A stretch of DNA of 56,016 bases from a virus. Numbering within the stretch: the stretch's first letter is position 1; each line of letters opens with the position of its first letter. This document shows positions 24,995-56,016 of the stretch, one piece after another. The DNA is taken from IMG/VR virus record IMGVR_UViG_3300012925_000002; one strand, written 5' to 3'. A program made the translations under genes and the position numbers. The notes below the pieces were generated by a model that saw only the letters and a list, made by a program, of their open reading frames with translations, ran no database searches and had not been told where the DNA came from.

Positions 24995-25470
24995 TTGCAA
25001 CCCGCCTCTATCCAAAGGGCCAACCGTCCTTCGTGCCGATACCATTCGCCTTGTGTGCGATATGTGGCAAACCGGTGGTGCAACTGTCGCTCGCGGGCGC
25101 GGCCCGGACCTTCGATGACCTTGTGCACCTTCATCCGGAGGGGCAAGCCCGTCTGTAAGCTCGCCAGCCGATGGTAAAGGTGGCTTGAAAAGCCAATCTT
25201 GATGAATTCCATGAACTGAATCACGTAAATGCCATAGAGTCGCTCTTTGTCGGGCGCGCGAGAACGCAGGACAAGGCTCGCACGCGACCAAAATTCGCCA
25301 TTTAGTGGCGCCGGGATCCTGTTGAGCAGGCGATAGTAATTGAAGTCTTCGATCGATAGGCGAAGGTGAGCGGCGGCTTGCTCGATGTTGAGCCAGTCAG
25401 CGGTTGGGTGCAGACCGATCGATTGGAGGGCAGGGCGTTCCTGACCGCTGGCAAGGGCTTGGCGGGGCAT
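24991..25470 (-). CDS. HTH + T5orf172 (MUG113/GIY-YIG-related) domain protein
   Basis: ..LNIEQAAAHLRLSIEDF.. then ..YGIYVIQFMEFIKIGFSS..LQTG..ERQLHHRFATYRTQGEWY... Confidence 0.65.
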   Translation of the reverse strand: MPRQALASGQERPALQSIGLHPTADWLNIEQAAAHLRLSIEDFNYYRLLNRIPAPLNGEFWSRASLVLRSRAPDKERLYGIYVIQFMEFIKIGFSSHLYHRLASLQTGLPLRMKVHKVIEGPGRARERQLHHRFATYRTQGEWYRHEGRLALWIEAGCK

Positions 25471-26460: not shown

Positions 26461-26513
26461 GATTTGGTTCAAGCGACCATCGGAGCAACCGGCCCTTGGT
26501 TTGCGATCACCTG
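26461..26513 (+). repeat. Junction repeat, 5' half, copy D (inverted relative to copy C; overlaps the DHH gene 3' end)
   Basis: ..GGTTCAAGCGACCATCGGAGCAA..TTGGTTTGCGATCACCTGG. Its complement encodes the last 16 codons and the stop of the DHH gene. Confidence 0.8.
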
Positions 26514-27395
26514 GTAGCCCGCCGCGTTGCGATGACCGCCGCCGCCGAATTTCTTGGCGATCTCGGAGACGTCAAGCCGATGATTCTCGGAGCGCAGCGA
26601 ATACTGGATCATGCCATCGCGGCGCCGGAACCAGCATGCGGTGAAGGGCGCGCCGGGAAAGCGCGATAGCAGCGCGTGAGCCATGTCGCTGGCGTAGTGA
26701 TAGGGGACGTTGACGACGGGAACCGAATGTCCGTCGATCGTGTCCATGTAGCAATCGGCCATGAACTTCCGGATGTTGGCATTGTGCGCACGGAGGATCA
26801 CGGCGCCGTCTGAGATCAAGTGCGACGTCGACTCCCGTTCGGCGAGCTTATCCCAGAGGTTGAATTCCTGCTCATAGGTGAGGAGGGCGGCAGAGAATTG
26901 CTTCGTCGCTTCGCCAAACTCGAATTTCCAGAGGTCGCGATCCTGAATTAATTCAAGGAACAGCGGAACGGTTTTTTCGGGACGGGCAAACTTCCACGCC
27001 ATCACGGCGCCGGATTGGGTCATGTCGAACCAAGCAACGATGGGCGGATCGTAGGCGTGGGCTGGATCGTATAGGTGGTTAACCAAAAACTCCGGCGTTG
27101 CCGACTGACCATTCCCGAGGTGAACGTCCCAAGGTGCGAGCTCGGCTTCGGCGGTTTTGTGGTGGTCGATCACAATGACGGATTTTGCGACCGCAGCCAG
27201 TACGCGCATCGGCTCGCGCTTAAACGAGAAATCGACGAACAAAACATTCTTGTCTCGCGCCTCCTCGCCGTCGATGGCTTCGCCGTAGATGCCGGGCACA
27301 AACCGGCAATCCGGCCAGCGCTTCCAGATCGCCCATGCTGCGCCGAAACCATCGTCACAGCCGCCGTGGTAGATGCAAATGTCTGGCTTCCACAT
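26469..27395 (-). CDS. DHH/DHHA1 family phosphoesterase
   Basis: Motifs ..YHGGCDDGFGAA.., ..VLFVDFS.., ..VIDHHKT.., ..QDRDLW.., and DHHA1 ..FGGGGHRNAAG... Confidence 0.8.
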   Translation of the reverse strand: MWKPDICIYHGGCDDGFGAAWAIWKRWPDCRFVPGIYGEAIDGEEARDKNVLFVDFSFKREPMRVLAAVAKSVIVIDHHKTAEAELAPWDVHLGNGQSATPEFLVNHLYDPAHAYDPPIVAWFDMTQSGAVMAWKFARPEKTVPLFLELIQDRDLWKFEFGEATKQFSAALLTYEQEFNLWDKLAERESTSHLISDGAVILRAHNANIRKFMADCYMDTIDGHSVPVVNVPYHYASDMAHALLSRFPGAPFTACWFRRRDGMIQYSLRSENHRLDVSEIAKKFGGGGHRNAAGYQVIANQGPVAPMVA

Positions 27396-35086: not shown

Positions 35087-35317
35087 ATGCCATCGGCCCA
35101 TAACCTCATCTCGCTTGCGCTGATCCACATCTCGATCGGCGCCGCAGTCTGGATGCTGCTCTACGGCCTTGGCCTGGTCGACTACCAGCGCAAAAGATGG
35201 GCCGCGCGCGGGCAGGAACTGACGCCAGTGGCATTCGGGCTGGCGATTTTGATGGTGATCGTGCTGTGGCCGAAATTTGTGGTGGCGTTCGTTAACGCGC
35301 GGATGGTGCGGCGATGA
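35087..35317 (+). CDS. Small membrane protein (2 TM)
   Basis: ..LISLALIHISIGAAVWMLLYGL.. and ..VAFGLAILMVIVLW... Confidence 0.5.
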   Translation: MPSAHNLISLALIHISIGAAVWMLLYGLGLVDYQRKRWAARGQELTPVAFGLAILMVIVLWPKFVVAFVNARMVRR

Positions 35318-36675
35318 ACCCCTTCCTCGCAGCGGGCGGCTTGTTGATGCCGGGCTCCCCGCGCCCGAAGCATCATCCGTTCGCAAATCTGTTCCCGATG
35401 CTGGCGGATGAACGTCGGGAGAGTTTCCGCGCCTCTCTTGCCGAAGGCCAAAACCACCCGATCATTCTGCACAAGGGTTTCGTCCTCGACGGCCGCAATC
35501 GCGAGCGCGAACTCGCCGAACTCGGAAAGCCGGTTGCCTACGCGATTTTTACAGGGACCGACGAATTCGCGCTCAAATTTGTCATCGCCGAAAATCTTGA
35601 GCGGCGCGATCTCACCGACAAGCAACGGGCGTTGATCGCGGCCTCGATCGCAACGCTAAGGCTTGGTGCCAATCAACATTCGCGGCAGGCTGCGCCAATT
35701 GGCGGACCCTCGCTTGATTTCGGAGAGCAAGATCAGCACGCGACGGAGGAAAGATCGTCGCCGCTTTCCCTGGGCGAAGCCTCGACGCTGATGAATGTGC
35801 CGCGCCGCAGCGTCGAACGTGCCGCGGTCATCGAAGCTGGCGCCACGCCAGAATTGATGGAGGCGGTCAGGACCGGGCCCGTGTCGCTCGATACGGGGGC
35901 TGCGTTGGCGCGCCTTCCATCGGAAGAGCAGAAGGCCATTCTCGACGCGCTCCCCCGCGATGAGGCCGGCAAACTCACGGCGGAAGCCAAGAAAGAAATC
36001 CGTAAAGCCGCGAAGGAGGTCCGCGTCGAGGACCAGGCCGAGAAAAAGCGCAAGCGCGGCGAGCGGGAGCAAAAGCTCGGCGCCAAAATCCGCGCACTGC
36101 CGGATATCAAGGCCGGCCTGATCCTCTCGGACTTCGAATGGCACTTCAAGGTGCGCTCGGAGGAAACCGGGATGGATCGCCACGCCTCCAACCACTACGT
36201 CACGGCCAAGGAAGCCTCGACGCCGGAAGCGATCGTCGAACGCCAGCGCGAGCGCATGAGCATCGCCGCGGAAGATTGTATCCATCTGATGTGGTGTCCG
36301 GCGTCGTTTTCGGCGATCGCTCACAAGGTGATGGAGCTACAGGGTTTTACCTACGTCTCGCAATTCTGCTGGATCAAGCCTTCGATCGGCACAGGTTTTT
36401 GGGTGCGGGACAGGCATGAACTGCTGTTGATCGGCGTCAAGGGCAAGGTGCCGTGCCCCGCGATGGGCGACCAATTCGATTCAGCGATCGAGGCACCCAA
36501 GGGTGATCATTCCGAGAAGCCGGATTTCCAGTACGAAATCGCGGAACATTATTTCCCAAGCCTGCCCAAGGTCGAGTTGAACGCGCGGCGGGCGCGGGAT
36601 GGATGGATATCGTGGGGGAACGAAGCGCCGGAGCAACCGTCGCTCGAAATCGACAGTGAGGAGCAAGCCGCATGA
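35314..36675 (+). CDS. ParB-like N-domain fused to an MT-A70 family methyltransferase domain (motif IV reads DFEW)
   Basis: ..HPIILHKGFVLDGRNRE.. (ParB N). ..LILSDFEWHF..NHYVT..GFWVRDRHELLLIG..DHSEKPD..VELNARR..GWISWGNE.. (MT-A70). Confidence 0.8.
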   Translation: MNPFLAAGGLLMPGSPRPKHHPFANLFPMLADERRESFRASLAEGQNHPIILHKGFVLDGRNRERELAELGKPVAYAIFTGTDEFALKFVIAENLERRDLTDKQRALIAASIATLRLGANQHSRQAAPIGGPSLDFGEQDQHATEERSSPLSLGEASTLMNVPRRSVERAAVIEAGATPELMEAVRTGPVSLDTGAALARLPSEEQKAILDALPRDEAGKLTAEAKKEIRKAAKEVRVEDQAEKKRKRGEREQKLGAKIRALPDIKAGLILSDFEWHFKVRSEETGMDRHASNHYVTAKEASTPEAIVERQRERMSIAAEDCIHLMWCPASFSAIAHKVMELQGFTYVSQFCWIKPSIGTGFWVRDRHELLLIGVKGKVPCPAMGDQFDSAIEAPKGDHSEKPDFQYEIAEHYFPSLPKVELNARRARDGWISWGNEAPEQPSLEIDSEEQAA

Positions 36676-38445: not shown

Positions 38446-38690
38446 AGATGCCTCAAATCATCAGCATTACCGGGCCGCTACCTCGCGAGCTCGCCAATGC
38501 AGTCTCTTCGGCAATTCACTTCGCGCTTCAGCGCGGCATGGCGATCGATGAAGCTTGCTGCGTCGTCGCCGGCATCGCTGCCGATTACGCCCGTGTCGAA
38601 TATGGAGATGAGTATCTCGATAACCTCGCGGCCGTGATCAAGGCCCATGCAGGCAGGCCGCTTCCGCGGGGCGCGAAAGGCAAAAAGTGA
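38442..38690 (+). CDS. Hypothetical protein
   Basis: 82 aa. ATGA coupling. Confidence 0.5.
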   Translation: MKMPQIISITGPLPRELANAVSSAIHFALQRGMAIDEACCVVAGIAADYARVEYGDEYLDNLAAVIKAHAGRPLPRGAKGKK

Positions 38691-39220
38691 ATGTGGCTCT
38701 ACATCCCCGACGCTTCAACCTCATCAGCCTCTGCACCGGAGGCGGCGGCCTCGATCTCGGCGTCGAGCTGGCAATGCCAGATGCTCGCTCAGTCGTGTGT
38801 GTGGAGAGGGAAGCATTCGCGGCCTCACAACTGGTCTGCGCGATACAAAAAGGTCTCCTGGCTGAAGCCGCTATTTGGAGCGATGTTGGAACCTTCGACG
38901 GCCGCCCATGGCGCGGCCTCGTGGATGGCGTCATTGGCGGCATCCCGTGCCAGCCTCATTCCCTCGCCGGAAAACGACGCGGCAGCGATGACGAGCGCGA
39001 CCTCTGGAGTGATGCGCGGCGCATCATCGTGCAGTCCGGAGCCTGGTTCGTCCTCATCGAAAACGTCCCCGGCATGCTTTCGGCGAAGCCCGGCCTCGAT
39101 CCGGGAGCGCTCCGGGTCCGCCGTGACCTACAAAGACTGGGTTTCCGGGTTGAGGCGGGACTGTTTACGGCGGCAGAGGTTGGCGCGAGCCACAAGAGAG
39201 AACGGTTGTTTATCCTCGCT
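38687..39220 (+). CDS. C5-cytosine DNA methyltransferase, N-terminal catalytic half (motifs I-VIII); continues in the +1 frame
   Basis: GTG start (GTGA coupling). ..LCTGGGGLDLG.. (I), ..GGIPCQPHS.. (IV), ..ENVPGML.. (VI), ..HKRERLFILA.. (VIII). Beyond ~39220 this frame loses protein-like character. Confidence 0.7.
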
Positions 39221-39221
39221 G

Positions 39222-41930
39222 TGGCCGACAATGGACGCGGCGGTCAGCAACGATGGCGAGCAGCCGGAAACGTTCTTCGCGCGCCGGCAGGAAATCAAGG
39301 CGAAGGGCATCAACGGCAACGGCATGGGGACGCCACTCGCGATAGCGGCGAAGGCTTGGCCGACTCCGTCGGCGAAGCTTGGGGACGATCGGAGGGGTTT
39401 TCCGTCGCCGGAATTGGCGGCGGCGCGGATCAAGAGCGGTCGCAGCAATCTCGACGATGCCGTGTCGAACTGGCCAACTCCGACCTCACGCGACTGGAAG
39501 GATACCGGCAATCTGGCGAACGTGCCGGAGAACGGCCTTCTGGGCCGGGTTGCGGCGAACTGGTCCACCCCGAGGGCGACGGACGGCGAGAAGGGCGGAC
39601 CGAACCAGAGCTTTGGAGCGGGCGGGACGCCGCTGCCGGCGCAAGCGATGCAATGGTCAACGCCGACGGTCAACGGCAACACCAACCGCAAGGGATCGTC
39701 GCCGACTTCGCAGGACGGTCTGAGGACGCCAGGCGGTCGACCGCTTTTCCCTCCCGGCCCATCCGATCTATCCGGTTGGCGGGGTGCCCTCGAAAGAGCG
39801 CCGGAGCTTGAACCCGCTTTTCGTCGAGTGGCTGATGGGCTGGCCTCCCGGCTGGACGTTGCTCGCGTGGACCGACTTCGCATGCTCGGCAACGGCGTTG
39901 TCCCGCTGGAAGCAGCGTATGCGATCCGAACTCTCTGGGCTCGGTTCGGGATGCAATCCATGACCGCAACAGCCCGCGCCACCTCTCAGCCCGAAACCTT
40001 CTACTTCGACCGCGAGCGTTCGCCCGGCGTCACTATCACGCTGCCGTCGATCGATGTCGACGAAGACCGCAACCAGTACCTGCGCGAGGGCATCGCAAAG
40101 ATGATCCGCCGCGCCCGCCGCTACATGCGCGCCAAGGATGGCGAAGGAACACGATGGACCGAAGGCTATGCCGGACGGATCATCGAATGGGCATTGCTGT
40201 TGAAGGAAGAAGGGCTGGTTCAAGCGGCCACTGCCGATGTGGGAGCGCCTATCGATCACCCGGGCAGGGAAGTTGCCGCAAGTGACGAAGACAGGGTGAT
40301 CGAAGATTCTACCAGCGATCACGCTGGCAGCTTGAATCAACCTATTACCGACGCCGAAAAAGATACTCTCGGTATAACCGATCCCATCGTCCACTCCCTG
40401 ATCGAGACCCACCGCACCCGCAAAATCTTCCCCGCCGGGCATACTTTCGCGATGACCAACCCCGTCATCAACGGCCACATGGTCACCTTAGGCACCTGCA
40501 GCTGCGGCGAAACCTTCTCCTATGCCTATGGCAGCGCCGGCCACGAACGGATGGATGCCGCGATCGAGGCGCACTGGCAGAAGTTCGATGCGACCGCAGA
40601 CAAGATCGACGGGCGCGGCGAGCCGATCGGCGGCGAGGCGCCGGCCGTCAAACCGAAACGAAAAAAGAAATCCCAACCCGACGCGATAGGCCAACCCGCG
40701 TCGATCGCGTCCGCGCCTGATAGTGCAGGCATCCACGGCGCGGACGCCCCTTCTTCCGATATCGCAGACGCGGCCCCACGCGCCATGCGATCAGAGCCCG
40801 CGCCTCACGCGCCCCCATCCGGCGCGGGCTCGACCCTTTTAGAGGATGCGCCAATTGGCGCAGGCTTGGTTGCGGCAGACATGGCGGCCGAACCACAGGA
40901 CGATTGGTCGGAGCTATTGCGGGCGGCGACGGACCTGGCGTGGCGGGAGCCGCAGCCGATCACGGAAACGCAAAAGATGCTGCTGGACTTCGGCAAGGTC
41001 TACGCGCATCCGAGGGAGGTTGAGCGTCCGGTCCTGCGATATCTGGGCGGCAAGTTCAGGCTTGCGCCTTGGATCATTTCCCATTTCCCTCCGCATCGGG
41101 TCTATGTTGAGCCATTCGGCGGCGCGGCGTCCGTTCTGCTGCGCAAGCCGCGATCGGCCGGCGAGTGCTATAACGACATCGATGGCAATTTGGTGAATCT
41201 CTTCGCCGTATTGCGGGACTTGGAGATGGCGTCCGAGCTGTGCCGGCGCCTGGTGCTGACGCCCTTTGCGCGCGACGAATACGATTCGGCATTCGAGACT
41301 ACGGAAGACCCGATAGAACGCGCGAGGCGGCTGATCGTCCGCTCCTACATGGGGCACGGCTCTTCATCTGCTATTTCCGAGAGATCGACGGGGTTTCGGG
41401 CCTCGCTCGTAAACAGGGGTGGCGCGCTGCCTGCGGGCGAGTGGCCCGGCATGCCCGGGGCCCTGCAGGCGATCACTGATCGCATTCAAGGCGTGCTGTT
41501 GGAATGCCGTCCCGCACTGCAAGTGATCGAGCGGTACGACGCTGCCGATACGCTGATTTATCTGGATCCGCCTTACGTGCAGGAAACCCGTTCGGCCAAG
41601 CGGCGCGGCGGACGCGCGTTCCACGCCTATGCCTTCGAGCTATCTGACGATGATCATGTCGCACTATTGGACCGCGTGCTGCAGGCGCGCGCGATGATCG
41701 TAATCTCGGGATATTCGAGTGCACTTTATGAAGAGAAGCTTTCCGCCTGGCGCCGCGAGGTGGTCGAGACGCACGCCGACGGCGCGCTTGATCGAACCGA
41801 AGTGCTTTGGCTCAATCCGCGGTGCGCCGAAGCCCTCGATGAACTCAATCCACCATTGTTCAACATGGCGGAATTGATCGCGGCCAATACCCCCCCCCCC
41901 CCTCGACGACAGCAACCTAGCGGAGGCTGA
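39222..41930 (+). CDS. C5-MTase C-terminal half (WPTP repeats, motif X) fused to an unknown middle region and a D12/Dam-class N6-adenine MTase
   Basis: Frame +1: ..LWPTMDA.., ..AWPTPSA.., ..NWPTPTSRDWKD.., ..RMLGNGVVP... There is no stop until 41930. C-terminus ..RYLGGKFRL..YVEPFGGAASVLL..YNDIDGNLVNLF..LIYLDPPYV... Confidence 0.7.
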   Translation, partial: WPTMDAAVSNDGEQPETFFARRQEIKAKGINGNGMGTPLAIAAKAWPTPSAKLGDDRRGFPSPELAAARIKSGRSNLDDAVSNWPTPTSRDWKDTGNLANVPENGLLGRVAANWSTPRATDGEKGGPNQSFGAGGTPLPAQAMQWSTPTVNGNTNRKGSSPTSQDGLRTPGGRPLFPPGPSDLSGWRGALERAPELEPAFRRVADGLASRLDVARVDRLRMLGNGVVPLEAAYAIRTLWARFGMQSMTATARATSQPETFYFDRERSPGVTITLPSIDVDEDRNQYLREGIAKMIRRARRYMRAKDGEGTRWTEGYAGRIIEWALLLKEEGLVQAATADVGAPIDHPGREVAASDEDRVIEDSTSDHAGSLNQPITDAEKDTLGITDPIVHSLIETHRTRKIFPAGHTFAMTNPVINGHMVTLGTCSCGETFSYAYGSAGHERMDAAIEAHWQKFDATADKIDGRGEPIGGEAPAVKPKRKKKSQPDAIGQPASIASAPDSAGIHGADAPSSDIADAAPRAMRSEPAPHAPPSGAGSTLLEDAPIGAGLVAADMAAEPQDDWSELLRAATDLAWREPQPITETQKMLLDFGKVYAHPREVERPVLRYLGGKFRLAPWIISHFPPHRVYVEPFGGAASVLLRKPRSAGECYNDIDGNLVNLFAVLRDLEMASELCRRLVLTPFARDEYDSAFETTEDPIERARRLIVRSYMGHGSSSAISERSTGFRASLVNRGGALPAGEWPGMPGALQAITDRIQGVLLECRPALQVIERYDAADTLIYLDPPYVQETRSAKRRGGRAFHAYAFELSDDDHVALLDRVLQARAMIVISGYSSALYEEKLSAWRREVVETHADGALDRTEVLWLNPRCAEALDELNPPLFNMAELIAANTPPPPRRQQPSGG
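41890..41902 (+). repeat. Homopolymeric C13 tract
   Basis: Read directly. Lies 26 nt before the MTase stop and ~20 nt upstream of the next gene's RBS. Confidence 0.9.
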
Positions 41931-45057: not shown

Positions 45058-46229
45058 GCCACCCCCGTTTTTCCATCATCCCAGCCGGCGCCGTCACCGA
45101 TCGTTCGCTGGAACCGCGCGACCTTCAGGTGCTCTGCCTGTTGGGCCGTCATACCGACAAGGCCGGATGGTGCACGCGCAGCCAAGTGAAGATGGCAAGC
45201 GAGATTTCGTGTTCCCGCGCCTCCTTACAAAATTCGCTGGAACGGCTCTATGAAGCAAAATGGGTCGAAAAAAAGCGGCGAGATATCGAGGTCGAGGAGG
45301 CCGGCGGCCGTCCGTCGCGCTCCTATGCATATCGCGTATTGCTCGATCGCGACGATTATGCCTTCGAAAGCATCACCCCGGACGCAGATGAAGAGACCGA
45401 GCCGAGCCATGCAGAAACCGTATCCGAAGAGGGGGGGTGCCAACCGGTTGGCACCCCCCAGAATTCAGAGGAGGGGGTGCCAACAGATCAGCACCCGGGT
45501 GCCAATGCATGGGATGGCACGGGTGCCAATCCATACGTTGGCACCAAGAACGTCCCCTTAGAACGTCCCCTCATTGAACGTGAGAGAGATGCGCGCGCGA
45601 AGGATCGAAAAGTAAAATTCCTGAATTCGTTCGAAGCGAGGTGGCCAACAGCGGCTGCGGATGATCGCCAGCGAACCGCCTATGCCGCCGAAGCGCTGAC
45701 GGAGCCCGAGGAGGTCGATGCGCTCGCCGGCATCATGCCGTTCCTCGAAAATCTCAAACGCCTCGGGCGGAAAAACGTTCCGGCAGGCTGGAACTACCTC
45801 GAGCAAAAACGCTGGACGCTGCTGGAGGCGCAGAAAGCGGCTGGCATCGCGCCGAACGCAGTGTTCGCCCGCGACAGCATCGAGGCCAAGGCGCTGATGG
45901 CGCTGCACGAGATCGCCGGCTGTGCCCAAGGGTTCCGCGCGATCTACGCCCGTTCCGATGGCGTATCGTACCGCAAACCGATGACGCCGCAACTGCTGGC
46001 GCTGGCGCAGATACCGCCCGCTTCGGAATGGGTGATCGCGACGCGCCAAGGCGCCGGTTCATGGGAAGCGCTGTTGCGCGAAACCGTGTCGATCGCGGTT
46101 CGCAAACACTTCAAGGAAGGCGATCGCGTGCCCTGGCCATGGGCACCGTCGGTCACGGGCAAAATCTACACAGCCGAGGCTAGCCCGGCGGGCGAAATGA
46201 ACGAGGCGGAACTGGCGGATTTCAAGTGA
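45054..46229 (+). CDS. Replication-initiator-like winged-HTH protein (TTG start; the longer ORF starts at 44943)
   Basis: ..PRFSIIPAGAVTDRSLEPRDLQVLCLLGRHTDKAGWCTRSQVKMASEISCSRASLQNSLERLYEAKWV... Confidence 0.6.
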   Translation: MSHPRFSIIPAGAVTDRSLEPRDLQVLCLLGRHTDKAGWCTRSQVKMASEISCSRASLQNSLERLYEAKWVEKKRRDIEVEEAGGRPSRSYAYRVLLDRDDYAFESITPDADEETEPSHAETVSEEGGCQPVGTPQNSEEGVPTDQHPGANAWDGTGANPYVGTKNVPLERPLIERERDARAKDRKVKFLNSFEARWPTAAADDRQRTAYAAEALTEPEEVDALAGIMPFLENLKRLGRKNVPAGWNYLEQKRWTLLEAQKAAGIAPNAVFARDSIEAKALMALHEIAGCAQGFRAIYARSDGVSYRKPMTPQLLALAQIPPASEWVIATRQGAGSWEALLRETVSIAVRKHFKEGDRVPWPWAPSVTGKIYTAEASPAGEMNEAELADFK

Positions 46230-46246
46230 AAACGGAGGGCAAAAGC

Positions 46247-46918
46247 ATGGCTACCAGCGCACCAACCCTGTACAAAATCGGCCAGTTCGTCGGCTACGTG
46301 CCGATCGAGGAAACGATCGATCTGACGCCAGCGCCAGATGCCACCTATTTCATCCTGCACACGGAGCCCGGCCGCGAGATGACGGCTCAAGCCAACCTGA
46401 TCCTTCGCAAGGTTCCGTTCTACCTGCCGACGATCCTTAGAGCAGCCCGCATTTCGGCGCGCCGGCATGCCGAAGGCGAGGATCATCCTGACGTTGCGAT
46501 GCCGCTGTTTCCCCGGATGATCCTGGTCAGCGAAAAGGTCGTCGAAGCAAAGCATGACTGCATCCGCTCCACCCCGGGCATGCTCTCCAACCCATTCATG
46601 AAGTTCGGTGAGGATTTTGCCATCGTGCGGCCGATCGCCATGCAGGTGATCCAGTACATCGAAGCCGGCGAGCGCGAGATGTATTATCGCAAAAAAGGCC
46701 GCAAAAACGCTCCGGTTTACATCCCGAAAGTGGGCGAAACCGTCAGGTTTTTGGTGGAAGAGGTGTTGGGTGGACGCCGCGGCGTCGTCGCCGACATAGA
46801 CGATGATGGACGAATCAGCCTACTGATGGAAATCATGAAGCGCACGGTTCGCGTCAAGACGACGGCGGACCGGATCGAGCCAGTTACAGCGGACCCTGCC
46901 GCTGGAATGGCGAGATAG
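46247..46918 (+). CDS. NusG/RfaH-like transcription antiterminator (NGN + KOW)
   Basis: RBS GGAGGG. ..YFILHTEPGREMTAQANL.. (NGN). ..VGETVRFLVEEVLGGRRGVVADIDDDGRISLLMEI.. (KOW). Confidence 0.7.
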   Translation: MATSAPTLYKIGQFVGYVPIEETIDLTPAPDATYFILHTEPGREMTAQANLILRKVPFYLPTILRAARISARRHAEGEDHPDVAMPLFPRMILVSEKVVEAKHDCIRSTPGMLSNPFMKFGEDFAIVRPIAMQVIQYIEAGEREMYYRKKGRKNAPVYIPKVGETVRFLVEEVLGGRRGVVADIDDDGRISLLMEIMKRTVRVKTTADRIEPVTADPAAGMAR

Positions 46919-47438: not shown

Positions 47439-47465
47439 AGCCCGGCCCTCAGTGCCGGGCTTTTT
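47439..47465 (+). terminator. Intrinsic terminator T2
   Basis: AGCCCGGC-cctcagt-GCCGGGCT followed by TTTTT. Preceded by the 18-nt perfect palindrome GCCGCTTTCGAAAGCGGC (47419-47436). Confidence 0.75.
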
Positions 47466-48266: not shown

Positions 48267-49805
48267 ATGAACGTTCCTGCGCCGCTGGTCGATGCCCATG
48301 TGGCCCACGACCGCGACCGTTCCTGGTCGCCACAGGAAGGCCCGCAAGACGACCTGTGTTGTTGCCCGTTTGCAGAAGTCCTGTTCGGCGGTGCCCGAGG
48401 CGGCGGCAAGACCGATGGCGTTCTGGGCAAATGGGCGTTGAAAGAACGCCGCTACGGCGCACACTTCAACGCCATCATGTTTCGCCGAACGTCGGTCTCT
48501 GCCGAAGATGCAATCGACCGCTCCAAGGAAATCTACACCCCGCTGGGTGGCCGCTACATCGAAAATCGCGGATGGCTGATGCCAAACGGCGGCAAGGTCC
48601 GGTTCAAGTATCTCGAAAGCGTGCAGGATGCCGATGAATACCAGGGCCGCAACGTCACCGATGCGTGGGTTGAGGAAGCCGGCCAGTATCCTGCCCCGGC
48701 TCCGATCGAGCGGCTGTTCGGCGTCTTACGTTCCGCGCACAGTGTTCCCGTTCAACTGATCCTGACCGCCAACCCCGGCGGTGCCGGGCAGCACTGGATC
48801 CGGCAACGCTACCAACTGCATCCGTTTCCGCTGCATCCGAAGGTGTTGCGCCGCAAGCTGCCGAACGGCGATGAGCATCGGATTGCCGTGATCCCGTCGC
48901 GGATATCCAATAACCGCATCCTGCTCAATAGTGATCCCGGCTACATCTCGCGGCTTCATCTGGTTGGCTCTGCTCAGCTCGTCAAAGCCTGGCTGGAAGG
49001 CGACTGGACCGCCATCGAAGGCGCATTCTTTGCCGAATGGAGCAACGAACAGCACGTCGTCGCACCGTTCTTGATCCCGGGACATTGGTTGCGGTTTCGG
49101 TCCGGTGACTGGGGGTCGTACGCGCCTTTTTCTATCGGATGGTGGGCGGTCGCTGGCGAAGACTTTAGGTTACCGGACGGGCGCGTCATTCCGCGCGGGT
49201 CCCTCGTTCGGTACCGCGAGTGGTATGGCGCGGTTGGCGGCAAGCTAACTGCCGAACAGGTTGGTAGGGGTATTGTAAGCCGCGAACGCGACGACCGCAG
49301 TAAACTCAGCTACGGCGTGCTCGATCCGTCCGCATTCGCCGAAGACGGCGGCCCGTCGATAGCTGAGCGCATCAATGATGAGTTGCTCGCCGAAACCGCA
49401 AAGCTTGCGAGCTTTATACGAGCCGACAACGCGCGCGTTACCCGACAGACGGGAGATCGCGAAAAGGCCGGCGCGATGGGTGGTTGGGATCAGATGCGAT
49501 CGCGGTTGGTCGGAACGGCCAAGCGTCTCGAAGACGGTTCGATCAACTGGTCGACCGGGCGTCCGGCCTTATATGTGTTTTCAACGTGCAGTGACTTCAT
49601 CCGGACGGTTCCGGTCCTGCAGCACGACAAGAACCGCGCTGAAGATCTCGATACCGATGCCGAAGATCACGCCGCCGACGATGGCCGCTATGCGTGTCTA
49701 TCCCGCCCCTGGATCAAGTCGTTGCCGAAAGACGAGGGCCAGAAGCGCGACGCCTTCCGCGAAGCGCGCGATGAACGTTACGATGAATCAACCGCCACGA
49801 TTTGA
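48267..49805 (+). CDS. terL: Terminase large subunit
   Basis: Walker A ..FGGARGGGKTDG.., Walker B ..DAWVEEAG.., nuclease ..SGDWGS.. and ..EDHAADDGRY... Confidence 0.9.
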   Translation: MNVPAPLVDAHVAHDRDRSWSPQEGPQDDLCCCPFAEVLFGGARGGGKTDGVLGKWALKERRYGAHFNAIMFRRTSVSAEDAIDRSKEIYTPLGGRYIENRGWLMPNGGKVRFKYLESVQDADEYQGRNVTDAWVEEAGQYPAPAPIERLFGVLRSAHSVPVQLILTANPGGAGQHWIRQRYQLHPFPLHPKVLRRKLPNGDEHRIAVIPSRISNNRILLNSDPGYISRLHLVGSAQLVKAWLEGDWTAIEGAFFAEWSNEQHVVAPFLIPGHWLRFRSGDWGSYAPFSIGWWAVAGEDFRLPDGRVIPRGSLVRYREWYGAVGGKLTAEQVGRGIVSRERDDRSKLSYGVLDPSAFAEDGGPSIAERINDELLAETAKLASFIRADNARVTRQTGDREKAGAMGGWDQMRSRLVGTAKRLEDGSINWSTGRPALYVFSTCSDFIRTVPVLQHDKNRAEDLDTDAEDHAADDGRYACLSRPWIKSLPKDEGQKRDAFREARDERYDESTATI

Positions 49806-50255: not shown

Positions 50256-50385
50256 CACCAATACCATCCACTTGCGTCGCCGTCCGTTCTTACAGCGCAT
50301 TGTCTGCATCTATCTCGGCTATCGCCGCATGCATTTTGGACCGTTCAAGGCTGCGCGGTTGGCGTGGCAGATGGCGAGGCTCTGA
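50248..50385 (+). CDS. Hypothetical 45-aa basic protein
   Basis: Overlaps the previous stop. MADTNTIHLRRRPFLQRIVCIYLGYRRMHFG... Confidence 0.35.
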   Translation: MADTNTIHLRRRPFLQRIVCIYLGYRRMHFGPFKAARLAWQMARL

Positions 50386-50558
50386 TGTCTGACACCACAA
50401 CGGCACCAAACAACAAGCCCGTCGATTTCGGCGACAAGGTCACCCGCGAAGTATCCGGCGCTGCGAAGAAGTCCGTGGTTCGCAAGGGTGCCAAGCGCGC
50501 GATCAAGCGCGGCATGATCTCCGAAAAGGCCGCCAAGCGCCACCTGAAGGATTACTGA
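50385..50558 (+). CDS. Hypothetical 57-aa lysine-rich protein
   Basis: TGATG coupling. Confidence 0.45.
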   Translation: MSDTTTAPNNKPVDFGDKVTREVSGAAKKSVVRKGAKRAIKRGMISEKAAKRHLKDY

Positions 50559-50559
50559 G

Positions 50560-50940
50560 GTGGGCTATGCCGAACCTGTTCTCGGAACGCGGATGCATTC
50601 GGCGGGACTGGTTCTGCAGGGCGTATTGACGCCAGCGCGTTGGCTGGAATTCCTCGCCGAAGTTGCAAAGGCGATCGGCATGTCGGCGGTGGATGAGGCC
50701 AAGGTCTGGACCTATCCGGCGCTCGACGGCAAGGGCGGCAGTGGCCAGACCATCGTACTGCCCGTCACGGAATCCTTTCTGGCACTCGATACCTGGGCGG
50801 ACCACCACGGCGCATACCTGCTCGTCTGCTCGTGCCGCTCCTATTACACGGCTGACATTGATCTAGTCGCGGAGCGGTTCGGCCTGAAGGTGGTTTTGCA
50901 TCCGTCGCGGCGGTTTTATCACGAACTCGATTTGAAGTGA
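50560..50940 (+). CDS. S-adenosylmethionine-decarboxylase-fold (SpeH/SpeD-like, pyruvoyl family) protein, divergent
   Basis: GTG start. ..GSGQTIVLPVTESFLALDTWADHHGAYLLVCSC.. compared with B. subtilis SpeH ..[32 protein letters not shown]... Confidence 0.5.
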   Translation: MGYAEPVLGTRMHSAGLVLQGVLTPARWLEFLAEVAKAIGMSAVDEAKVWTYPALDGKGGSGQTIVLPVTESFLALDTWADHHGAYLLVCSCRSYYTADIDLVAERFGLKVVLHPSRRFYHELDLK

Positions 50941-50944
50941 GCCG

Positions 50945-52282
50945 ATGAGCCTCAAATCCAAAACCGCGCTGGTCTGGGACAACGGCATCTTTACCGAGAT
51001 CGCCGTGACGCTCGCCAAGGATTTCGGTCGCATGCTCTACTACGTGCCATGGACCTCGGGTATGCCGAAGTCCAACGCGCTGATGATCGGCGAAGGCATC
51101 GATGGCGTCGAGCGCGTCGCATCGCCATGGGCTCATTTCGACGAGATCGACATCTGGATTTTCCCCGACGTTTACGAGGGCGATCTGCAGGAGTGGCTGG
51201 CCTCGCAGGGCAAGCGGGTGTGGGGCTGCCGGCTCGGCGCCGAACTCGAGATCGACCGCCCGACCTCGAAGGAAACATCCAAAAAGCTCGGCATCGACGT
51301 CGGGCCCTACAAGGTGATCACGGGGCTCGACGCGCTGCGCAAGCATCTCAAGGCCAATGACGACCAGTGGGTGAAAATCTCCGGCACCCGCGGCGACATG
51401 GAAACCTTCGGCGCCAAGTCTTACGAGAAGGTCGAGGTTCGTCTGGACGAACTCGAACACAATCTCGGCGCGCTGAAGAAGGTGATGAAGTTCACCGTCG
51501 AGCAAGGCATCAACGATGCGGTTGAGACCGGCTATGACGGCTACTGCATCGACGGCAAGTACCCGAAGGGCGCCATGACCGGCGTCGAGGTCAAGGACGA
51601 AGCCTATCTGATGAAGACGGTCGCCTGGCGCGATCTGCCCGAACCGGTACGGACCGTCAACGAAAAGCTGGCGCCGGCGCTCAAGCGCTACGGCTATCGC
51701 GGCTTCATCTCGACCGAAGTTCGCGTCACCAAGGACGGCAAGTCCTATCTGATCGATCCGTGTTGTCGCGCCGGCTCGCCGCCGAACGAGCTCTACCAGG
51801 TCATGATCAGCAACCTCGCCGACGTGATCTGGTACGGCGCCGAAGGCATCGTGATCGAGCCGGACTTCAAGGCTAAATGGGGTGCGGAAGTGCTCTTGAT
51901 CTCCGACTGGGCAGACGAGAACTGGATGCAAGTTTCGTTTCCGGAAAGTGTGCGAGAGAACGTCAAGCTCCGCAACTTCTGCTGCATCGAGGGCGAGTAC
52001 TACGTGATCCCGCAATGGACGGGATGCGCCGAGATTGGCGCCGTGGTCGGGATCGGCGATACGCCCGATGAAGCGATCGCAGAAGTCAAGCGGATCGCCG
52101 ATCTGGTCGAGGGACATCTGCTGGACAAGCCGATCGACGCGCTCGATATCGCGCGCGAGCAGCTCGAGCAGGTGCTCGGGCCCGACAAGCCGGAAACGAA
52201 AGACCAGCGCAAGGCGCGCGAGCTGCACAAGGCCGGCAAGATTTCGGACCGGCAGCTCGACAAGATGATGGCGCGAGGCTGA
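50945..52282 (+). CDS. ATP-grasp fold enzyme
   Basis: 445 aa. ..WVKISGTRGDMETF.., ..GYRGFISTEVRVTKDGKSYLIDPCCRAGSP.. resemble the ATP-grasp nucleotide/Mg-binding strands. Confidence 0.55.
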   Translation: MSLKSKTALVWDNGIFTEIAVTLAKDFGRMLYYVPWTSGMPKSNALMIGEGIDGVERVASPWAHFDEIDIWIFPDVYEGDLQEWLASQGKRVWGCRLGAELEIDRPTSKETSKKLGIDVGPYKVITGLDALRKHLKANDDQWVKISGTRGDMETFGAKSYEKVEVRLDELEHNLGALKKVMKFTVEQGINDAVETGYDGYCIDGKYPKGAMTGVEVKDEAYLMKTVAWRDLPEPVRTVNEKLAPALKRYGYRGFISTEVRVTKDGKSYLIDPCCRAGSPPNELYQVMISNLADVIWYGAEGIVIEPDFKAKWGAEVLLISDWADENWMQVSFPESVRENVKLRNFCCIEGEYYVIPQWTGCAEIGAVVGIGDTPDEAIAEVKRIADLVEGHLLDKPIDALDIAREQLEQVLGPDKPETKDQRKARELHKAGKISDRQLDKMMARG

Positions 52283-52578
52283 TGGCGATGCGCCGCGGCG
52301 GTCGATCCTACTGGCGCATGGTCCGCTTACGCGAACGCAACATGGCTGCTCGGCCAATAACGCCAAGCGAATACCGCGGCGAGAACGACTACGACCGCGC
52401 CGACATTATGGCCAAGATCGACTCATTGTCGATGGGTTGGCGGATGTTGATCAACCAGCATGGTTTTACGCCCGTGATGCAGGCGCGCAACTATTCGACC
52501 GATATCGCAATCGTCGAGAAGATGATGAATCAGCGTCACGAAATCCGGCAGGAACAACTCGCAAAAGGCAGGGCCTGA
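52282..52578 (+). CDS. Hypothetical protein
   Basis: TGATG coupling. 98 aa. Confidence 0.5.
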   Translation: MAMRRGGRSYWRMVRLRERNMAARPITPSEYRGENDYDRADIMAKIDSLSMGWRMLINQHGFTPVMQARNYSTDIAIVEKMMNQRHEIRQEQLAKGRA

Positions 52579-52627: not shown

Positions 52628-52849
52628 GTGACCCGCGACGAATTCGAAGCTCTCATGGATGCAGATGCGTGGTCGCCGCAGCAGCGTGCGCGCTGGTGCG
52701 ATTACACGCCGGTCGTCGATGGTGCGACGTTGCGGCGCGAAATGTCTCGCCCTGACGGGATGATCGAAGTCAAGTTCGTCAATCCGCCGCAGTCCGTCTT
52801 GTCTTGGTTTGGGCTTCGCATCCTCTTGCGCAGTAGGCTCGCAGCGTAA
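52628..52849 (+). CDS. Hypothetical protein (GTG start)
   Basis: 73 aa. TAATG coupling to the portal gene. Confidence 0.45.
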   Translation: MTRDEFEALMDADAWSPQQRARWCDYTPVVDGATLRREMSRPDGMIEVKFVNPPQSVLSWFGLRILLRSRLAA

Positions 52850-54834
52850 TGCCACTGACGGAATATTCCCCTCTCGACGCCATGGACCGCGCGGATAACG
52901 CGCGCCTGGCGCCGCTCGTCGGGGACCGGCAGGACAACAATCCGGTCGAAGACAAGCGCGAGCGGGTGGTTGACGACGATGACGAGATGTTCCTGCCGGT
53001 ACGTACCTTACGCGTACAAGTGCAGGACTATCTCGACAGCAAGGTCGATGAGATCGAGGAACAGAAGGATTCCCGCCGCTATTATCACGGCGCGCAGCTC
53101 ACGGCAGACCAATACCGGATCCTCAAAGCCCGCCATCAACCCGTGCAGATCTGGCCGCGGGTCGGGCGCAAGATCAACGGCATCGTCGGCGTCGTCGAAC
53201 GTGCGCGTTGTGACCCCAAGGCAGAAGGGCGTGATCCGAAGTCGGAGGCGGGTGCGGAGATCGCGACCCAATCGATCCGGTCTGTGCTCGATGGCAACCA
53301 GTTCAAGAACGCGCTCGGACCGGTGGTATTGTTGCAGGCCGGCATTGAAGGCATCGCCGGCATCCAGTTGGTGCTGCAAAAGGGCGACAAGGGCGATCCG
53401 GACGTTGGTCTGCATTGGGTGATCGGCGACGAATATTTCTATGATCCCCGGTCCTACCAGTTCAATTTCCGCGACAGTCGCTACGAAGGCCTGATGAAGT
53501 GGATGGATCTCGACGCGGCGATCGAGATGTTTCCGGGCAAAGAAGACCTGCTCGAGGGCCTGTTCCAGGGTGACAGCGACCTCACCACCAATTCCGACCG
53601 GGAGATGAAGTGGATCATCTCGACCGAGCGCCGGCTGCGCATGGTCGAACACTGGTACAAGCACAAGGGACGATGGTGCTGGGCGTTCTACGTCGCCAAC
53701 GTGTTGCTCGATCAGGGCGTCTCGCCCTTCAAGGACGAGCGCGGCAATTCGGAATCCTCTTTCGAGATGTTTTCGGCTGCGATCGATCAGGACGGCGACC
53801 GCTATTCGTTCGTGCGTGGCTTCAAGGGTCCGCAGGACGCGCTCAATCAAGGCAAGTCGAAGACGTTGGCGCTGGCGAACTCGCGCCGCGTCATCATGGA
53901 AAAGGGTGCGGTCGATGACGTCGAGATCGCGCGGCGCGAAGTGGCGCGCCACGACGGGCTCGTCGAGATCAATCCGCAGAAGCAGTTCAAAGTCGATGAT
54001 ACCCATCCGGATATCGCGACGTTCACGAGCTTTACCGATGACGCCAAGGCCGAGCTCGATGGCTTTGCCAACTCCAACATCGCGGCCATCACGGGCCCGG
54101 GCGGCGTCGGCAACATCTCGGGCAGGGCGCTGGAATTGTTGCGCGAGCCTGGCATGGCCGAACTCGGGCCGTTCGTGCTGGCGCATCGGGCGTTCAAGCT
54201 TGGGCTCTATCGAAAAATCTGGAACGCGGTCTCCCGGCATTGGACCGCAGAGCGCTGGATTCGCGTCAACTCCAACGAGAAGATCGCGCAGTTCATCCAG
54301 TTGAACGGGCTCGACGTTGACGAATGGGGCCGTCCCACGATCGTCAACGCGGTCGGCTCGCTCGACGTGAACATCGTGCTCGACGAAGGCCCGGACGTGA
54401 TCTCGATGATGGATGAGACCTACGACATGCTCAAGGGCTACCCGCCCGGCACCTTCCCGCCGCAGGTCCTGATCGAGATGAATCCGCATCTGCCGCGCTC
54501 GGAGAAGGACCGCATTCTGAAAATGATGCAGCCACAGCAGAAGCCGCCGGACCCGATCGCCGAAGCCGTCAAGCGGCTGCATCTGGAAGGCCTCGCCGGC
54601 AAGAACGCGAAACAAGCTGCCGAGACGCAAAAGACGCTGGCCGGCGCCGACCAGGCCGCGGCTACCGCCGAAGAGAAGCGCGCCGGCATCGGGCATCAGA
54701 CGGACATGCGTGAACTATCGGCGCATGAATTCGTGCGGGATTCACTGTTTGAAGCCCATAAGATCATGGCGCCGTTCCTCAACCCGCCGCCGCAAGCCGG
54801 GCAGGGTGCGCCAATTGGCGCAGGCGCGGCCTGA
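52849..54834 (+). CDS. Portal protein
   Basis: 661 aa between the terminase and scaffold genes. ..RRYYHGAQLTADQYRILKARHQPVQIWPRVGRKING.. is portal-like. Confidence 0.8.
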   Translation: MPLTEYSPLDAMDRADNARLAPLVGDRQDNNPVEDKRERVVDDDDEMFLPVRTLRVQVQDYLDSKVDEIEEQKDSRRYYHGAQLTADQYRILKARHQPVQIWPRVGRKINGIVGVVERARCDPKAEGRDPKSEAGAEIATQSIRSVLDGNQFKNALGPVVLLQAGIEGIAGIQLVLQKGDKGDPDVGLHWVIGDEYFYDPRSYQFNFRDSRYEGLMKWMDLDAAIEMFPGKEDLLEGLFQGDSDLTTNSDREMKWIISTERRLRMVEHWYKHKGRWCWAFYVANVLLDQGVSPFKDERGNSESSFEMFSAAIDQDGDRYSFVRGFKGPQDALNQGKSKTLALANSRRVIMEKGAVDDVEIARREVARHDGLVEINPQKQFKVDDTHPDIATFTSFTDDAKAELDGFANSNIAAITGPGGVGNISGRALELLREPGMAELGPFVLAHRAFKLGLYRKIWNAVSRHWTAERWIRVNSNEKIAQFIQLNGLDVDEWGRPTIVNAVGSLDVNIVLDEGPDVISMMDETYDMLKGYPPGTFPPQVLIEMNPHLPRSEKDRILKMMQPQQKPPDPIAEAVKRLHLEGLAGKNAKQAAETQKTLAGADQAAATAEEKRAGIGHQTDMRELSAHEFVRDSLFEAHKIMAPFLNPPPQAGQGAPIGAGAA

Positions 54835-55327: not shown

Positions 55328-56016
55328 ATGATCAGGGAAGTAGACGCCATCTCCGATGCGATCATCGCAACCGAGCGTGAAATCGCAGGAGACGCGTGGG
55401 GTCAGGAAGATACTGATTTGGGCGATGCTACCGGAGACCGCGCGCTCGAGGATATCGGCGGGGGGCTCGAAGGCCAGCACGAGCAAGAGGATGCCGACGA
55501 CGCTGAAGGTGAGGAAGCCGAAGGCGAAGACGGTGAGGGTGAAGGCGAAGAAGCTGAAGGTCAAACGGAAGCGGAGATTGCTGCCGCAGCTGCTGCCAAG
55601 GCGGCGGGCGAGGTAGCTCCGAAGCCGGCCGCAAGGACTGAACCGGAAGGCCGCGTGCCTCCTGGCCGGTACCGTGAGGTGGCCGAGCGCGCGCGATCAG
55701 CGGAAGCCGAACGTGATGCGCTGAAAGCGGAGATCGAGAAATCCAAAGGCGACAGCACGTCGCTGAAGGGTCAACTCGATCTGGTCATGCGCGAGATCAA
55801 CGATCTCAAGCGTGGTGCCGTCCGCACGGAAGCGCCGAAGCCGGTTGAGCCCAAAGCCATTCCTGACATCTTCGAGGACCCGAAAGGGTTCGTCGATCAC
55901 CTCACGCAAGGGTTCCAGAGCGAGTTTGCGAAACGCGACACGGTCCTTGAAAACAACCGGGTCGAAACCTCAATGGCGATCGCGCACGCGTTCCACAAGG
56001 ATGGGTTCGAAAAAGC
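55328..56016 (+). CDS. Scaffolding-like protein, N-terminal part (open at the window end; continues at 2..517)
   Basis: From ATG 55328 there is no stop to the window end. Acidic E/D/G-rich N-terminus, then coiled-coil-like ..AEAERDALKAEIEKSKGDSTSLKGQLDLVMREINDLK... Confidence 0.7.
   Translation, partial: MIREVDAISDAIIATEREIAGDAWGQEDTDLGDATGDRALEDIGGGLEGQHEQEDADDAEGEEAEGEDGEGEGEEAEGQTEAEIAAAAAAKAAGEVAPKPAARTEPEGRVPPGRYREVAERARSAEAERDALKAEIEKSKGDSTSLKGQLDLVMREINDLKRGAVRTEAPKPVEPKAIPDIFEDPKGFVDHLTQGFQSEFAKRDTVLENNRVETSMAIAHAFHKDGFEK
55894..56016. repeat. Terminal direct repeat, right copy (identical to 1..123)
   Basis: Read directly. Confidence 0.95.

Follow-up and report, generated by a model that had tools for sequence, protein, structure and literature searches.

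A putative pyruvoyl decarboxylase and a PurD-like ATP-grasp enzyme encoded as a gene pair in the structural module of a P22-like phage

What are two genes for enzymes of metabolic appearance doing between the terminase and the portal of a phage? The question is raised by the viral genome of IMG/VR record IMGVR_UViG_3300012925_000002, whose 56,016 nucleotides are here called the window. A preliminary description, made from the nucleotide sequence, had noticed there a 126-aa protein resembling small pyruvoyl S-adenosylmethionine decarboxylases (AdoMetDC), followed 4 nt later by a 445-aa ATP-grasp-like ligase, and had placed both between terminase and portal. The open reading frames (ORFs), their lengths, the gap and the placement were all found in the window: the gene of the 126-aa protein (GTG start) occupies positions 50560-50940 and that of the 445-aa protein (ATG start) positions 50945-52282, both on the + strand. 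The reading that we favour is that the two form a coupled two-step module, in which a pyruvoyl decarboxylase would make an amine and an ATP-grasp enzyme would ligate it into an amide; taken as a whole, we judge the case for this reading to be evenly poised.

The 126-aa protein was matched by the Pfam profile PF02675 (AdoMet_dc) at an E value of 6.9e-5 (23.6 bits), and 22 of the 40 homologues listed, which are 53-100% identical to the window protein, carried a precomputed match to the same family. A model built with AF2 on these 40 homologues reached a pLDDT of 91.4. When it was compared with the PDB by Foldseek, the top four matches were AdoMetDC of Thermotoga maritima (1vr7, 1tlu, 1tmi), with E values of 9e-5 to 5e-4, TM values of 0.55-0.64 and a probability of 1.00. 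Model and matches agree in giving the protein the alpha/beta-sandwich fold of AdoMetDC, and the resemblance first suspected by eye is upheld by Pfam, by the homologues and by predicted structure alike. Plain sequence comparison was less productive: phmmer with either the single 126-aa or the single 445-aa protein found nothing significant in the PDB, and a profile of the 126-aa family reached Aquifex AdoMetDC at E 1.3 only. Two further matches of this profile were false, being His-tag linkers (HHHSSGLVPRGSH), and were discarded. A tblastn search of 50,697 deposited phage genomes with the 126-aa protein gave no match.

The residues around the expected self-cleavage site are more informative. 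The peptide given in the preliminary description, GSGQTIVLPVTE followed by SFLALDTWADHHGAYLLVCSC, is present, with predicted cleavage between E71 and S72 (nt 50770-50775, + strand) and with C92 (nt 50833-50835, + strand) retained. Both canonical histidines of class 1b enzymes (ESH...H) are lost, as had been claimed. The one beside the pyruvoyl serine is replaced by phenylalanine in the window family (F73), and the canonical position five residues after the serine is occupied by D77 (nt 50788-50790, + strand). In the T. maritima enzyme S63, H68 and C83 are essential for processing and catalysis (PMC10407285). S63 corresponds to S72 and C83 to C92, both invariant, and H68 to D77, an invariant aspartate in the window clade. 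Among the 40 homologues S72, D77, T78, W79, C90, S91 and C92 are all invariant, and the segment PITESFLALDTW.DH.GAYL.VCSC is nearly frozen. The near-frozen stretch around S72 and C92 therefore reads as an active-site signature and not as that of a decaying pseudoenzyme. The pyruvoyl-precursor serine is retained across all three divergent clades of ATP-grasp-linked AdoMetDC-like proteins, and the two sister clades (family c29 and the type of locus L075) keep the equivalent of H68. The 126-aa protein has the AdoMetDC fold and is probably a pyruvoyl-dependent enzyme.

Phage homologues of class 1b AdoMetDC act as AdoMetDC or as pyruvoyl-dependent arginine or ornithine decarboxylases (PMC9992855), the SpeD derivatives with arginine or ornithine decarboxylase activity being known as SpeDA and SpeDC (Li et al. 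2023, PMC9992855, PMC10407285). The window protein shares with class 1b SpeD a small alpha/beta fold of about 120 aa, the Glu-Ser pair at the cleavage site, a cysteine 20 residues further on, the TW motif and the fact of being phage-encoded. It differs in the aspartate at the H68 position, the phenylalanine beside the serine and its sub-threshold scores. Moreover, its gene is obligately linked to an ATP-grasp gene in a late structural operon, and not to speE, hss or speY. We do not file it among the characterised AdoMetDC, arginine decarboxylase or ornithine decarboxylase groups.

For the 445-aa protein no Pfam or PHROG family was found, and NCBIfam gave a weak purD match only. Its AF2 model (pLDDT 95.8) was nevertheless readily placed: the top 13 Foldseek matches in the PDB were all PurD (GAR synthetase), aligned over about 440 columns, followed by biotin carboxylases and PurK. 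The best of them, PurD of A. aeolicus (2yw2, E 1.4e-20, TMq 0.72), is matched over its full length, through the pre-ATP-grasp, ATP-grasp and C-terminal regions. A profile of 77 family members found PurD among the PDB sequences at E 1.4e-9. Model and profile thus agree on a PurD-like, multi-domain ATP-grasp architecture, and what had been called an ATP-grasp-like ligase can be specified as a PurD-like enzyme that is not PurD. In an alignment of 378 homologues E102, R105, K144, R149, E153, E186, E194, D198, E215, K217, E258, D271, R275, P279 and N290 are invariant or nearly so. Seven of these (K144, E186, E194, K217, E258, D271 and R275) are kept in at least 360 of the 378 and represent the ATP-binding lysine and the acidic metal ligands of the ATP-grasp superfamily.

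The family departs from PurD at the metal site. The motif D271-P-C273-C-R275 (51755-51769, + strand) aligns with the ATP-grasp Mg/phosphate motif E-x-N-x-R, and the PurD signature I-E-F-N-C-R-F-G-D-P-E is replaced by I-D-P-C-C-R-A-G-S-P-P in the window. At position 273 the 378 sequences have cysteine in 258 cases, threonine in 97 and asparagine in none. The LE-x-[SD]-[KR] motif, the strand of the ATP-binding lysine and I-[ED]-x-x-x-R-x-G-x-P do align with PurD, and a GGREHA-type motif, which we take to be typical of the PurD N terminus, aligns with D-x-G-x-F-x-x-x-A in the window. However, identity to PurD structures is only 13-17%, E-x-N has become D-x-C/T and RFGDPE has become R-x-G-S-P-P. 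The window protein also bears a phage-specific C-terminal tail and lacks a purine-operon context; in all loci examined the gene lies in a late or structural module of a phage. A bona fide PurD was rejected on the basis of the TIGR00877 equivalog score, 13.1 bits where membership requires 288, and of the change from E-x-N to D-x-C/T. On its sequence features we class the 445-aa protein not as a GAR synthetase but in an ATP-grasp family of its own, in which the metal site is altered throughout. Its putative activity is an ADP-forming ligation of a carboxylate and an amine via an acyl-phosphate.

Do the two genes belong together? In 104 loci ORFs were called and searched with hidden Markov models (HMMs) made from the family alignments, and the neighbours were clustered; counts refer to those 64 non-redundant ATP-grasp loci that had flanks of 1.5 kb or more in both directions. 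An AdoMetDC-like gene adjoins the ATP-grasp gene in 29 of the 64, usually with a 4-nt overlap with the ATP-grasp start (as in locus L003), and it is adjacent in 18 of 20 loci with a P22-like portal. Co-occurrence in other phage head modules, a check that the preliminary description had proposed, was also followed from the other side. When loci were retrieved through the AdoMetDC-like protein, the ATP-grasp gene lay directly downstream in 25 out of 25, with stop and start mostly overlapping. The earlier view that such a pair is unusual in a head module is upheld. The pair is conserved upstream of P22-like portals and occurs inside the structural modules of very different phages as well. When 131 families of neighbouring genes were examined with Pfam, no other recurring enzyme emerged, only structural proteins and families of no assigned function.

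The identity of the partner varies in an instructive way. Partners of the window type have ES-F...D at the active site. Closely related phages with P22-type portals carry, at the same position, a sister type with the canonical histidine (IESGIQIHT...YCC), one member of which, at L006, has a precomputed PF02675 match. At L075 and L082 the partner is a canonical AdoMet_dc protein (Pfam 6.5e-17, phrog_3125). At L059, L109 and L110 the ATP-grasp gene is immediately followed by a gene for a non-homologous enzyme, the pyruvoyl-dependent arginine decarboxylase PvlArgDC (PF01862, E 4.9e-45), and relatives of this lineage (52-58% identity) bear an AdoMetDC-like gene instead. Because the partner can be replaced by a non-homologous enzyme of the same chemistry, its role is most simply explained as pyruvoyl-dependent decarboxylation, and this replacement is our strongest evidence. 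It is also the reason for guessing that the reaction might be arginine to agmatine.

A second partner is a small protein of about 125 aa, family c3, whose gene is a direct neighbour of the ATP-grasp gene at 23 of these 64 loci (for example L088:6621-6995, L012:6616-6981 and L081:8244-8954; about 30 other loci also have it). H47, E51 and H96 are invariant and the motif EPGD..APY..EH is characteristic. Where c3 accompanies a decarboxylase, which it sometimes does, the order is either c3-decarboxylase-ATP-grasp or decarboxylase-c3-ATP-grasp, and one clade has c3 and an Erv1/Alr sulfhydryl-oxidase domain joined in a single protein. Neither Pfam nor PHROG nor the PDB contained a match to c3; of its 184 database homologues at E <= 0.001, none of the 120 listed had an informative name or Pfam match, and the c3 HMM found nothing in the window. 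A two-gene unit of a distant ATP-grasp homologue (24% identity, E 5e-11, motif FFEKCERFG) followed by c3 was found in the metagenome-assembled genome GCA_964464925.1 (L106:7715-9393, L107:1047-2713). Its neighbours are genes for GAPDH, an isocitrate-type dehydrogenase, purH, NorB and NrfA, a chromosomal context of cellular appearance. The module may accordingly have arisen in cells, or a cellular form of it may exist. Because ATP-grasp and c3 sit there among chromosomal genes, the core of the module may be older than its career in phages.

The ATP-grasp gene also has other surroundings. In some phages it adjoins Mu-type baseplate genes, and many loci without either partner have it after giant ORFs. 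In distant lineages it was seen directly after ORFs of 1000-2300 aa (L081:1-6882, L093, L084:2744-6898, L088:2803-6621 and L075:3-6596). One giant ORF has a weak ART-PolyVal match, and LPD23 was noted nearby. Such neighbours suggest, from gene order, a linkage to polyvalent or internal virion proteins.

How widespread is the family? An exhaustive search yielded 1254 clusters at 50% identity with E <= 1e-3, 756 of them with E <= 1e-30, and a single peptide pattern recovers 205 loci in IMG/VR. In the 50,697 deposited phage genomes the family occurs in three only, all of them hot-spring viruses of Aquificae, whose records leave the protein without a name or give it a wrong one. There the ATP-grasp gene lies two small ORFs past the portal, and these small ORFs neither align with the AdoMetDC-like family nor match Pfam. 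The structure database BFVD contained no close viral relative of the ATP-grasp protein (best TMq 0.45). In some database records homologues are labelled 'phosphoribosylamine-glycine ligase'.

Several members of the family carry additional domains. Insertions of about 330-340 aa are present in homologues P0163, P0179, P0183, P0195, P0208, P0262 and P0281, at three or more sites: after G-x-E-x-K-D, between the two cysteines of I-D-P-C-C (both motifs being invariant) and at another point further towards the N terminus. Cys is their first residue, [SG]N with Cys next to it marks their end, and Pfam matches them weakly to LAGLIDADG or intein families; in P0163, P0179 and P0183 the insertion falls exactly within the D-P-C-C motif. 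By these marks they look like inteins. Inteins at invariant motifs in turn imply that the ATP-grasp active site is conserved and selected. Other homologues have N-terminal HAD-phosphatase domains of PNKP/GmhB type or, in one case, an acylphosphatase domain (PF00708, E 6e-14); they are P0189, P0194, P0227, P0254, P0307 and P0275. The fusions hint that a phosphorylated substrate, product or intermediate may be involved. We considered whether the fused domain stands in for c3 and rejected the idea, since the HAD-fused form still has c3 downstream.

The position of the pair in the genome bears on when it would be expressed. The first and last 123 bases of the window are identical (1-123 = 55894-56016), leaving about 55,893 bp of unique sequence. 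Because these repeated ends are an overlap left by the assembly of a circular molecule, the window represents a complete, circularly assembled phage genome of about 55.9 kb, and a scaffold-like ORF from 55328 crosses the circular junction into the window start. The phage is temperate and P22-like, with an integrase gene at 23601-24758 (- strand; found in the gene scan of the window), a major head protein at 637-1800 (phrog_334), a head-closure protein of the P22 gp10 type and a protein of ejection type. The host is probably Bradyrhizobium; the only match among the genomes of 185,579 species representatives, in a scan with a single protein, was a prophage of Bradyrhizobium sp. YR681 (78% identity). 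Two genes of the early or lysogeny region were noted in passing, one for a T5orf172/MUG113 (GIY-YIG-like) domain protein at 24991-25470 (- strand) and one with a weak match to DHH/DHHA1 phosphoesterases at 26469-27395 (- strand).

All genes around the pair are on the + strand, in the order antiterminator, hairpin, small terminase, large terminase, small ORFs, 64-aa ORF, 126-aa ORF, 445-aa ORF, 98-aa ORF, 73-aa ORF, portal, scaffold-like protein and major head protein. The large terminase subunit TerL is encoded at 48267-49805 (+ strand; phrog_979 E 5e-24, with Terminase_3 and Terminase_6N also matching) and the P22-type portal at 52849-54834 (+ strand; PF16510 E 1e-71, phrog_156 E 5e-77). The strong hairpin at 47439-47461 (+ strand), which resembles an intrinsic terminator, with an 8-bp stem containing 7 GC pairs and a T run, is the sole terminator-like site on the + strand between 44000 and 56016. 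Upstream of it is a NusG-like antiterminator gene (46226-46918, + strand; PF02357, phrog_6386), and directly downstream is the small-terminase gene. The hairpin probably marks the start of an antiterminated late operon that holds the pair. This layout recalls late control by lambda Q or P22 gp23, with a NusG-family protein taking the place of the antiterminator.

The gene junctions are tight. The 64-aa ORF stops 1 nt before the GTG of the 126-aa ORF (TGA-G-GTG), TGA-GCCG-ATG with its 4-nt gap joins the 126-aa to the 445-aa ORF, and in TGATG the start of the 98-aa ORF overlaps the ATP-grasp stop. Given these junctions, the common + strand and the absence of a further terminator-like site on that strand, the pair is assigned to the late, virion-assembly transcript and is taken to be translationally coupled. 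The 98-aa ORF (52282-52578, + strand) has no significant Pfam or PHROG match and belongs to a conserved family of downstream neighbours, c22 (HMM E 1.2e-30). The 64-aa ORF (50364-50558, + strand) encodes a basic protein of family c38 (HMM E 3.8e-9; 41 loci match), a conserved upstream neighbour.

A short peptide connects the pair with its neighbours. The ATP-grasp protein ends in a helical tail (residues 412-445; 52178-52279, + strand) with the motif HKAGKISDRQLDKMM, its last residues being HKAGKISDRQLDKMMARG. The 64-aa ORF ends in KRGMISEKAAKRHLKDY, the same motif in the form KRGMISEKAAKRHL. Family c8, a small ORF which in related loci separates the ATP-grasp gene from the portal, has the same ending in 13 of 14 members (L009, L017, L019, L022, L025 and L027 are among the loci with c8). 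A fuller form of the peptide is common to all three families: [KR]-x-G-x-I-S-[DEP]-[KQ]-x-x-x-K-[LM]. The core G-x-[IVLM]-S-[DEPA]-[KRQE] is found in the last 40 aa of 20 out of 29 P22-portal-adjacent ATP-grasp proteins as against none of 44 others (Fisher p 2e-11), a difference that is confounded by phylogeny. That proteins of three neighbouring gene families of the head module end in this peptide suggests that they bind the same partner, and the peptide may serve for docking.

How might the module work? The pair would be expressed late in infection together with the virion proteins, and its products would be functionally coupled. The 126-aa protein would cleave itself between Glu71 and Ser72, converting Ser72 to an N-terminal pyruvoyl group, and would then decarboxylate an amino acid to a primary amine; our best guess for the substrate is a basic amino acid, for example arginine giving agmatine or ornithine giving putrescine. 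The 445-aa enzyme would activate a carboxylate with ATP as an acyl-phosphate and couple it to the amine, giving an N-acylated amine or a polyamine-type amide. Alternatively, it could use a larger acceptor and attach the amine to one of the carboxyl groups there. A polyamine-type counter-ion for packaged DNA is compatible with this scheme, and so is amide ligation onto a virion protein, to which the C-terminal motif lends weak support.

Several observations weigh against a decarboxylase coupled to a ligase. The 126-aa protein stays just below the gathering score of PF02675 (23.6 as against 25 bits) and misses the NCBIfam cut-off of TIGR03330 by far (12.4 as against 75.65 bits). The equivalent of H68, an essential residue, is an aspartate throughout the window clade, and autoprocessing is for this reason not assured. 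In the ATP-grasp enzyme the canonical Mg-binding asparagine, the third metal ligand, is replaced by cysteine or threonine. Neither a decarboxylase nor c3 was found with the first HMMs in 17 of the 64 loci, of which at least two later proved to carry a pyruvoyl decarboxylase (L075/L082, L059), and 18 of the 64 have the unrelated small protein c3 only. As many loci lack a detectable decarboxylase, the ligase does not strictly depend on one encoded by the phage. The arginine guess, finally, comes from one PvlArgDC lineage and a family annotation.

The acceptor could be a protein rather than a small molecule. The ATP-grasp enzyme would then be recruited by its tail to the procapsid, portal or scaffold. 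It would link the product of the decarboxylase, as an amide, to Glu, Asp or C-terminal carboxyls of a virion or internal protein, altering charge or DNA binding in the head. ATP-grasp enzymes that modify proteins are well known (RimK, TTL and LysX), the gene lies in the structural modules of very different phages (with a P22-type portal, an Aquificae portal, a Mu-type baseplate or giant ORFs), and the C-terminal motif, which is confined to the P22-portal lineage, is common to the ATP-grasp protein, the 64-aa ORF and c8. The association of the motif is, however, confounded by phylogeny, the nearest structural relatives (PurD, PurK and biotin carboxylase) act on small molecules and the distant homologue with c3 sits in a cellular-looking chromosomal context. 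We consider a protein acceptor rather unlikely. A more specific version would make the ligase a PurD-like maturation enzyme docked to the procapsid or portal. Brought in by its C-terminal peptide, it would amidate acidic groups of internal virion proteins, or adducts of the packaged DNA, with an agmatine- or putrescine-type amine from the adjoining decarboxylase. We regard this version as decidedly unlikely. The 126-aa protein might also be no enzyme at all. It could be a non-processing regulatory or structural subunit like the AdoMetDC prozyme of trypanosomatids, or a substrate of the ATP-grasp enzyme, which might for instance ligate something onto the new C-terminal Glu71 after cleavage. The change of H68 to Asp across the whole clade fits this idea, an AdoMetDC/prozyme heterodimer is among the weaker fold matches (6bm7, 5tvm), and ATP-grasp enzymes often act on small neighbouring proteins. 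Yet the serine, the cysteine and the motif around them are invariant in the pattern of an active site, sister phages use versions with the histidine and in one lineage the place is taken by PvlArgDC, which belongs to a genuine enzyme family with another fold. Since an unrelated fold could not take over a structural or substrate role, we hold a non-enzymatic partner to be very unlikely.

Nor need the two genes have anything to do with each other: they could be independent auxiliary metabolic genes lying side by side, a decarboxylase of the polyamine pathway and a PurD that boosts purine synthesis. The participation of phage SpeD homologues in polyamine synthesis is documented (PMC9992855), structure comparison and profile search both match the 445-aa protein best to PurD, and some records name its homologues accordingly. 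Against independence stand the purD score, the low identity and the family-wide changes to D-x-C/T and R-x-G-S-P-P, as well as the linkage in all 25 reverse loci with mostly overlapping stop and start, the exchange of the partner for analogous pyruvoyl decarboxylases and the location in a late structural operon instead of among early metabolic genes. Independence is therefore, in our estimate, highly unlikely. Lowest in our estimation is DNA hypermodification, in which the amine from the decarboxylase would be joined by the ATP-grasp enzyme to a DNA base with a carboxyl group, at about the time when the DNA is packaged. Phage DNA does provide a precedent for a carboxyl handle and an ATP-dependent amide ligase, since CmoX and CmoY form a carboxymethylcytosine-glycine amide and require CmoA and an SPPC-type CmoX with R350 (PMC12783734). 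Like the proposed module, this is ATP-dependent amide formation by phages on a carboxyl handle. The window phage encodes several DNA methyltransferases, and HAD phosphatase domains of polynucleotide-kinase type form part of some ATP-grasp homologues. CmoY, however, is an AMP-forming, asparagine-synthetase-type ligase and not an ATP-grasp enzyme, and the C5-methyltransferase of the window has the ordinary PCQ motif (GGIPCQP) instead of SPPC. No CmoA, base-synthesis, thymidylate-synthase-like, kinase or transglycosylase gene was seen among the window genes scanned, no DNA-modification gene recurs beside the pair among the 131 neighbour families and no DNA-binding domain is detectable in the ATP-grasp protein. 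A CmoX/CmoY-type system was rejected, as no CmoA was seen among the genes scanned, the C5-methyltransferase is not an SPPC-type CmoX and the ligase of the pair is an ATP-grasp enzyme instead of an AMP-forming AsnB-like one, and we consider DNA hypermodification as a whole extremely improbable.

The methyltransferase genes deserve a separate remark. One of them, at 38687-41930, is apparently split over two frames. The frame of 38687 encodes the N-terminal half of a C5-cytosine methyltransferase (FxGxG, GGIPCQP, ENV and QKRERLF), whereas its target-recognition region and motif X (LGNGVVP) are read in the frame of 38691, together with an N6-adenine methyltransferase of the D12 class at the C terminus. 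A frameshift, an error of sequencing or programmed recoding could account for the split. Another gene, at 35314-36675, encodes a separate methyltransferase of the MT-A70 type.

Pathways in which a decarboxylase feeds an ATP-grasp amide ligase are known from cells. MfnA and MfnD join tyramine and glutamate in methanofuran synthesis, beta-alanine is used by carnosine synthase, and polyamines by glutathionylspermidine or trypanothione synthetase. As in the coupled module that we favour, the amine, or a beta- or gamma-amino acid, comes from a decarboxylase, and an enzyme of ATP-grasp type joins a carboxylate to it via an acyl-phosphate. These pathways differ in that their decarboxylases are pyridoxal-phosphate-dependent or of PanD type, in that their ligases belong to other ATP-grasp clades and in that they serve cellular cofactor or redox metabolism. 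To our knowledge, none of them is borne by a phage or located in a head module. The clusters of ATP-grasp, amidoligase and glutamine amidotransferase genes in LUZ24-like phages were predicted to make a peptide-like metabolite or modification (Iyer et al. 2009, cited in PMC3890496) and, as outlined there, likewise include phage ATP-grasp enzymes without an assigned product. According to the same outline, their ATP-grasp protein has about 290 aa, is encoded in the early region and has GS-like amidoligase, GAT-II and GGCT partners, unlike the pair described here.

While phage SpeD homologues in polyamine metabolism (PMC9992855) and decarboxylase-fed ATP-grasp amide ligases in cells are both established, we found in the searchable literature no description of the present ATP-grasp family or of its D-x-C/T site, nor of the His-to-Asp AdoMetDC clade or of such an obligate pairing inside phage structural modules. 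That the ligase is strictly paired with pyruvoyl decarboxylases, and that these have two unrelated folds, points to a defined two-step chemistry, in which an amine is made and an amide is formed, and for such chemistry at the time and place of virion assembly there is no described phage pathway. For enzymology the ATP-grasp active-site variant, D-x-C/T for E-x-N, and the His-to-Asp pyruvoyl enzyme are of interest in themselves, and the prophage of Bradyrhizobium sp. YR681 is a possible culturable entry point. If the docked maturation enzyme, which we consider decidedly unlikely, should prove true, it would amount to a previously unknown enzymatic charge-editing step in head assembly, widespread in uncultured phages and with a cellular ancestor in the ATP-grasp and c3 unit. 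Uncultured phages carry the ATP-grasp family in great abundance, and the identity of its product would annotate thousands of phage genes, would widen the polyamine repertoire of phages beyond simple biosynthesis and would possibly reveal a new modification of the virion, of DNA or of a small molecule.

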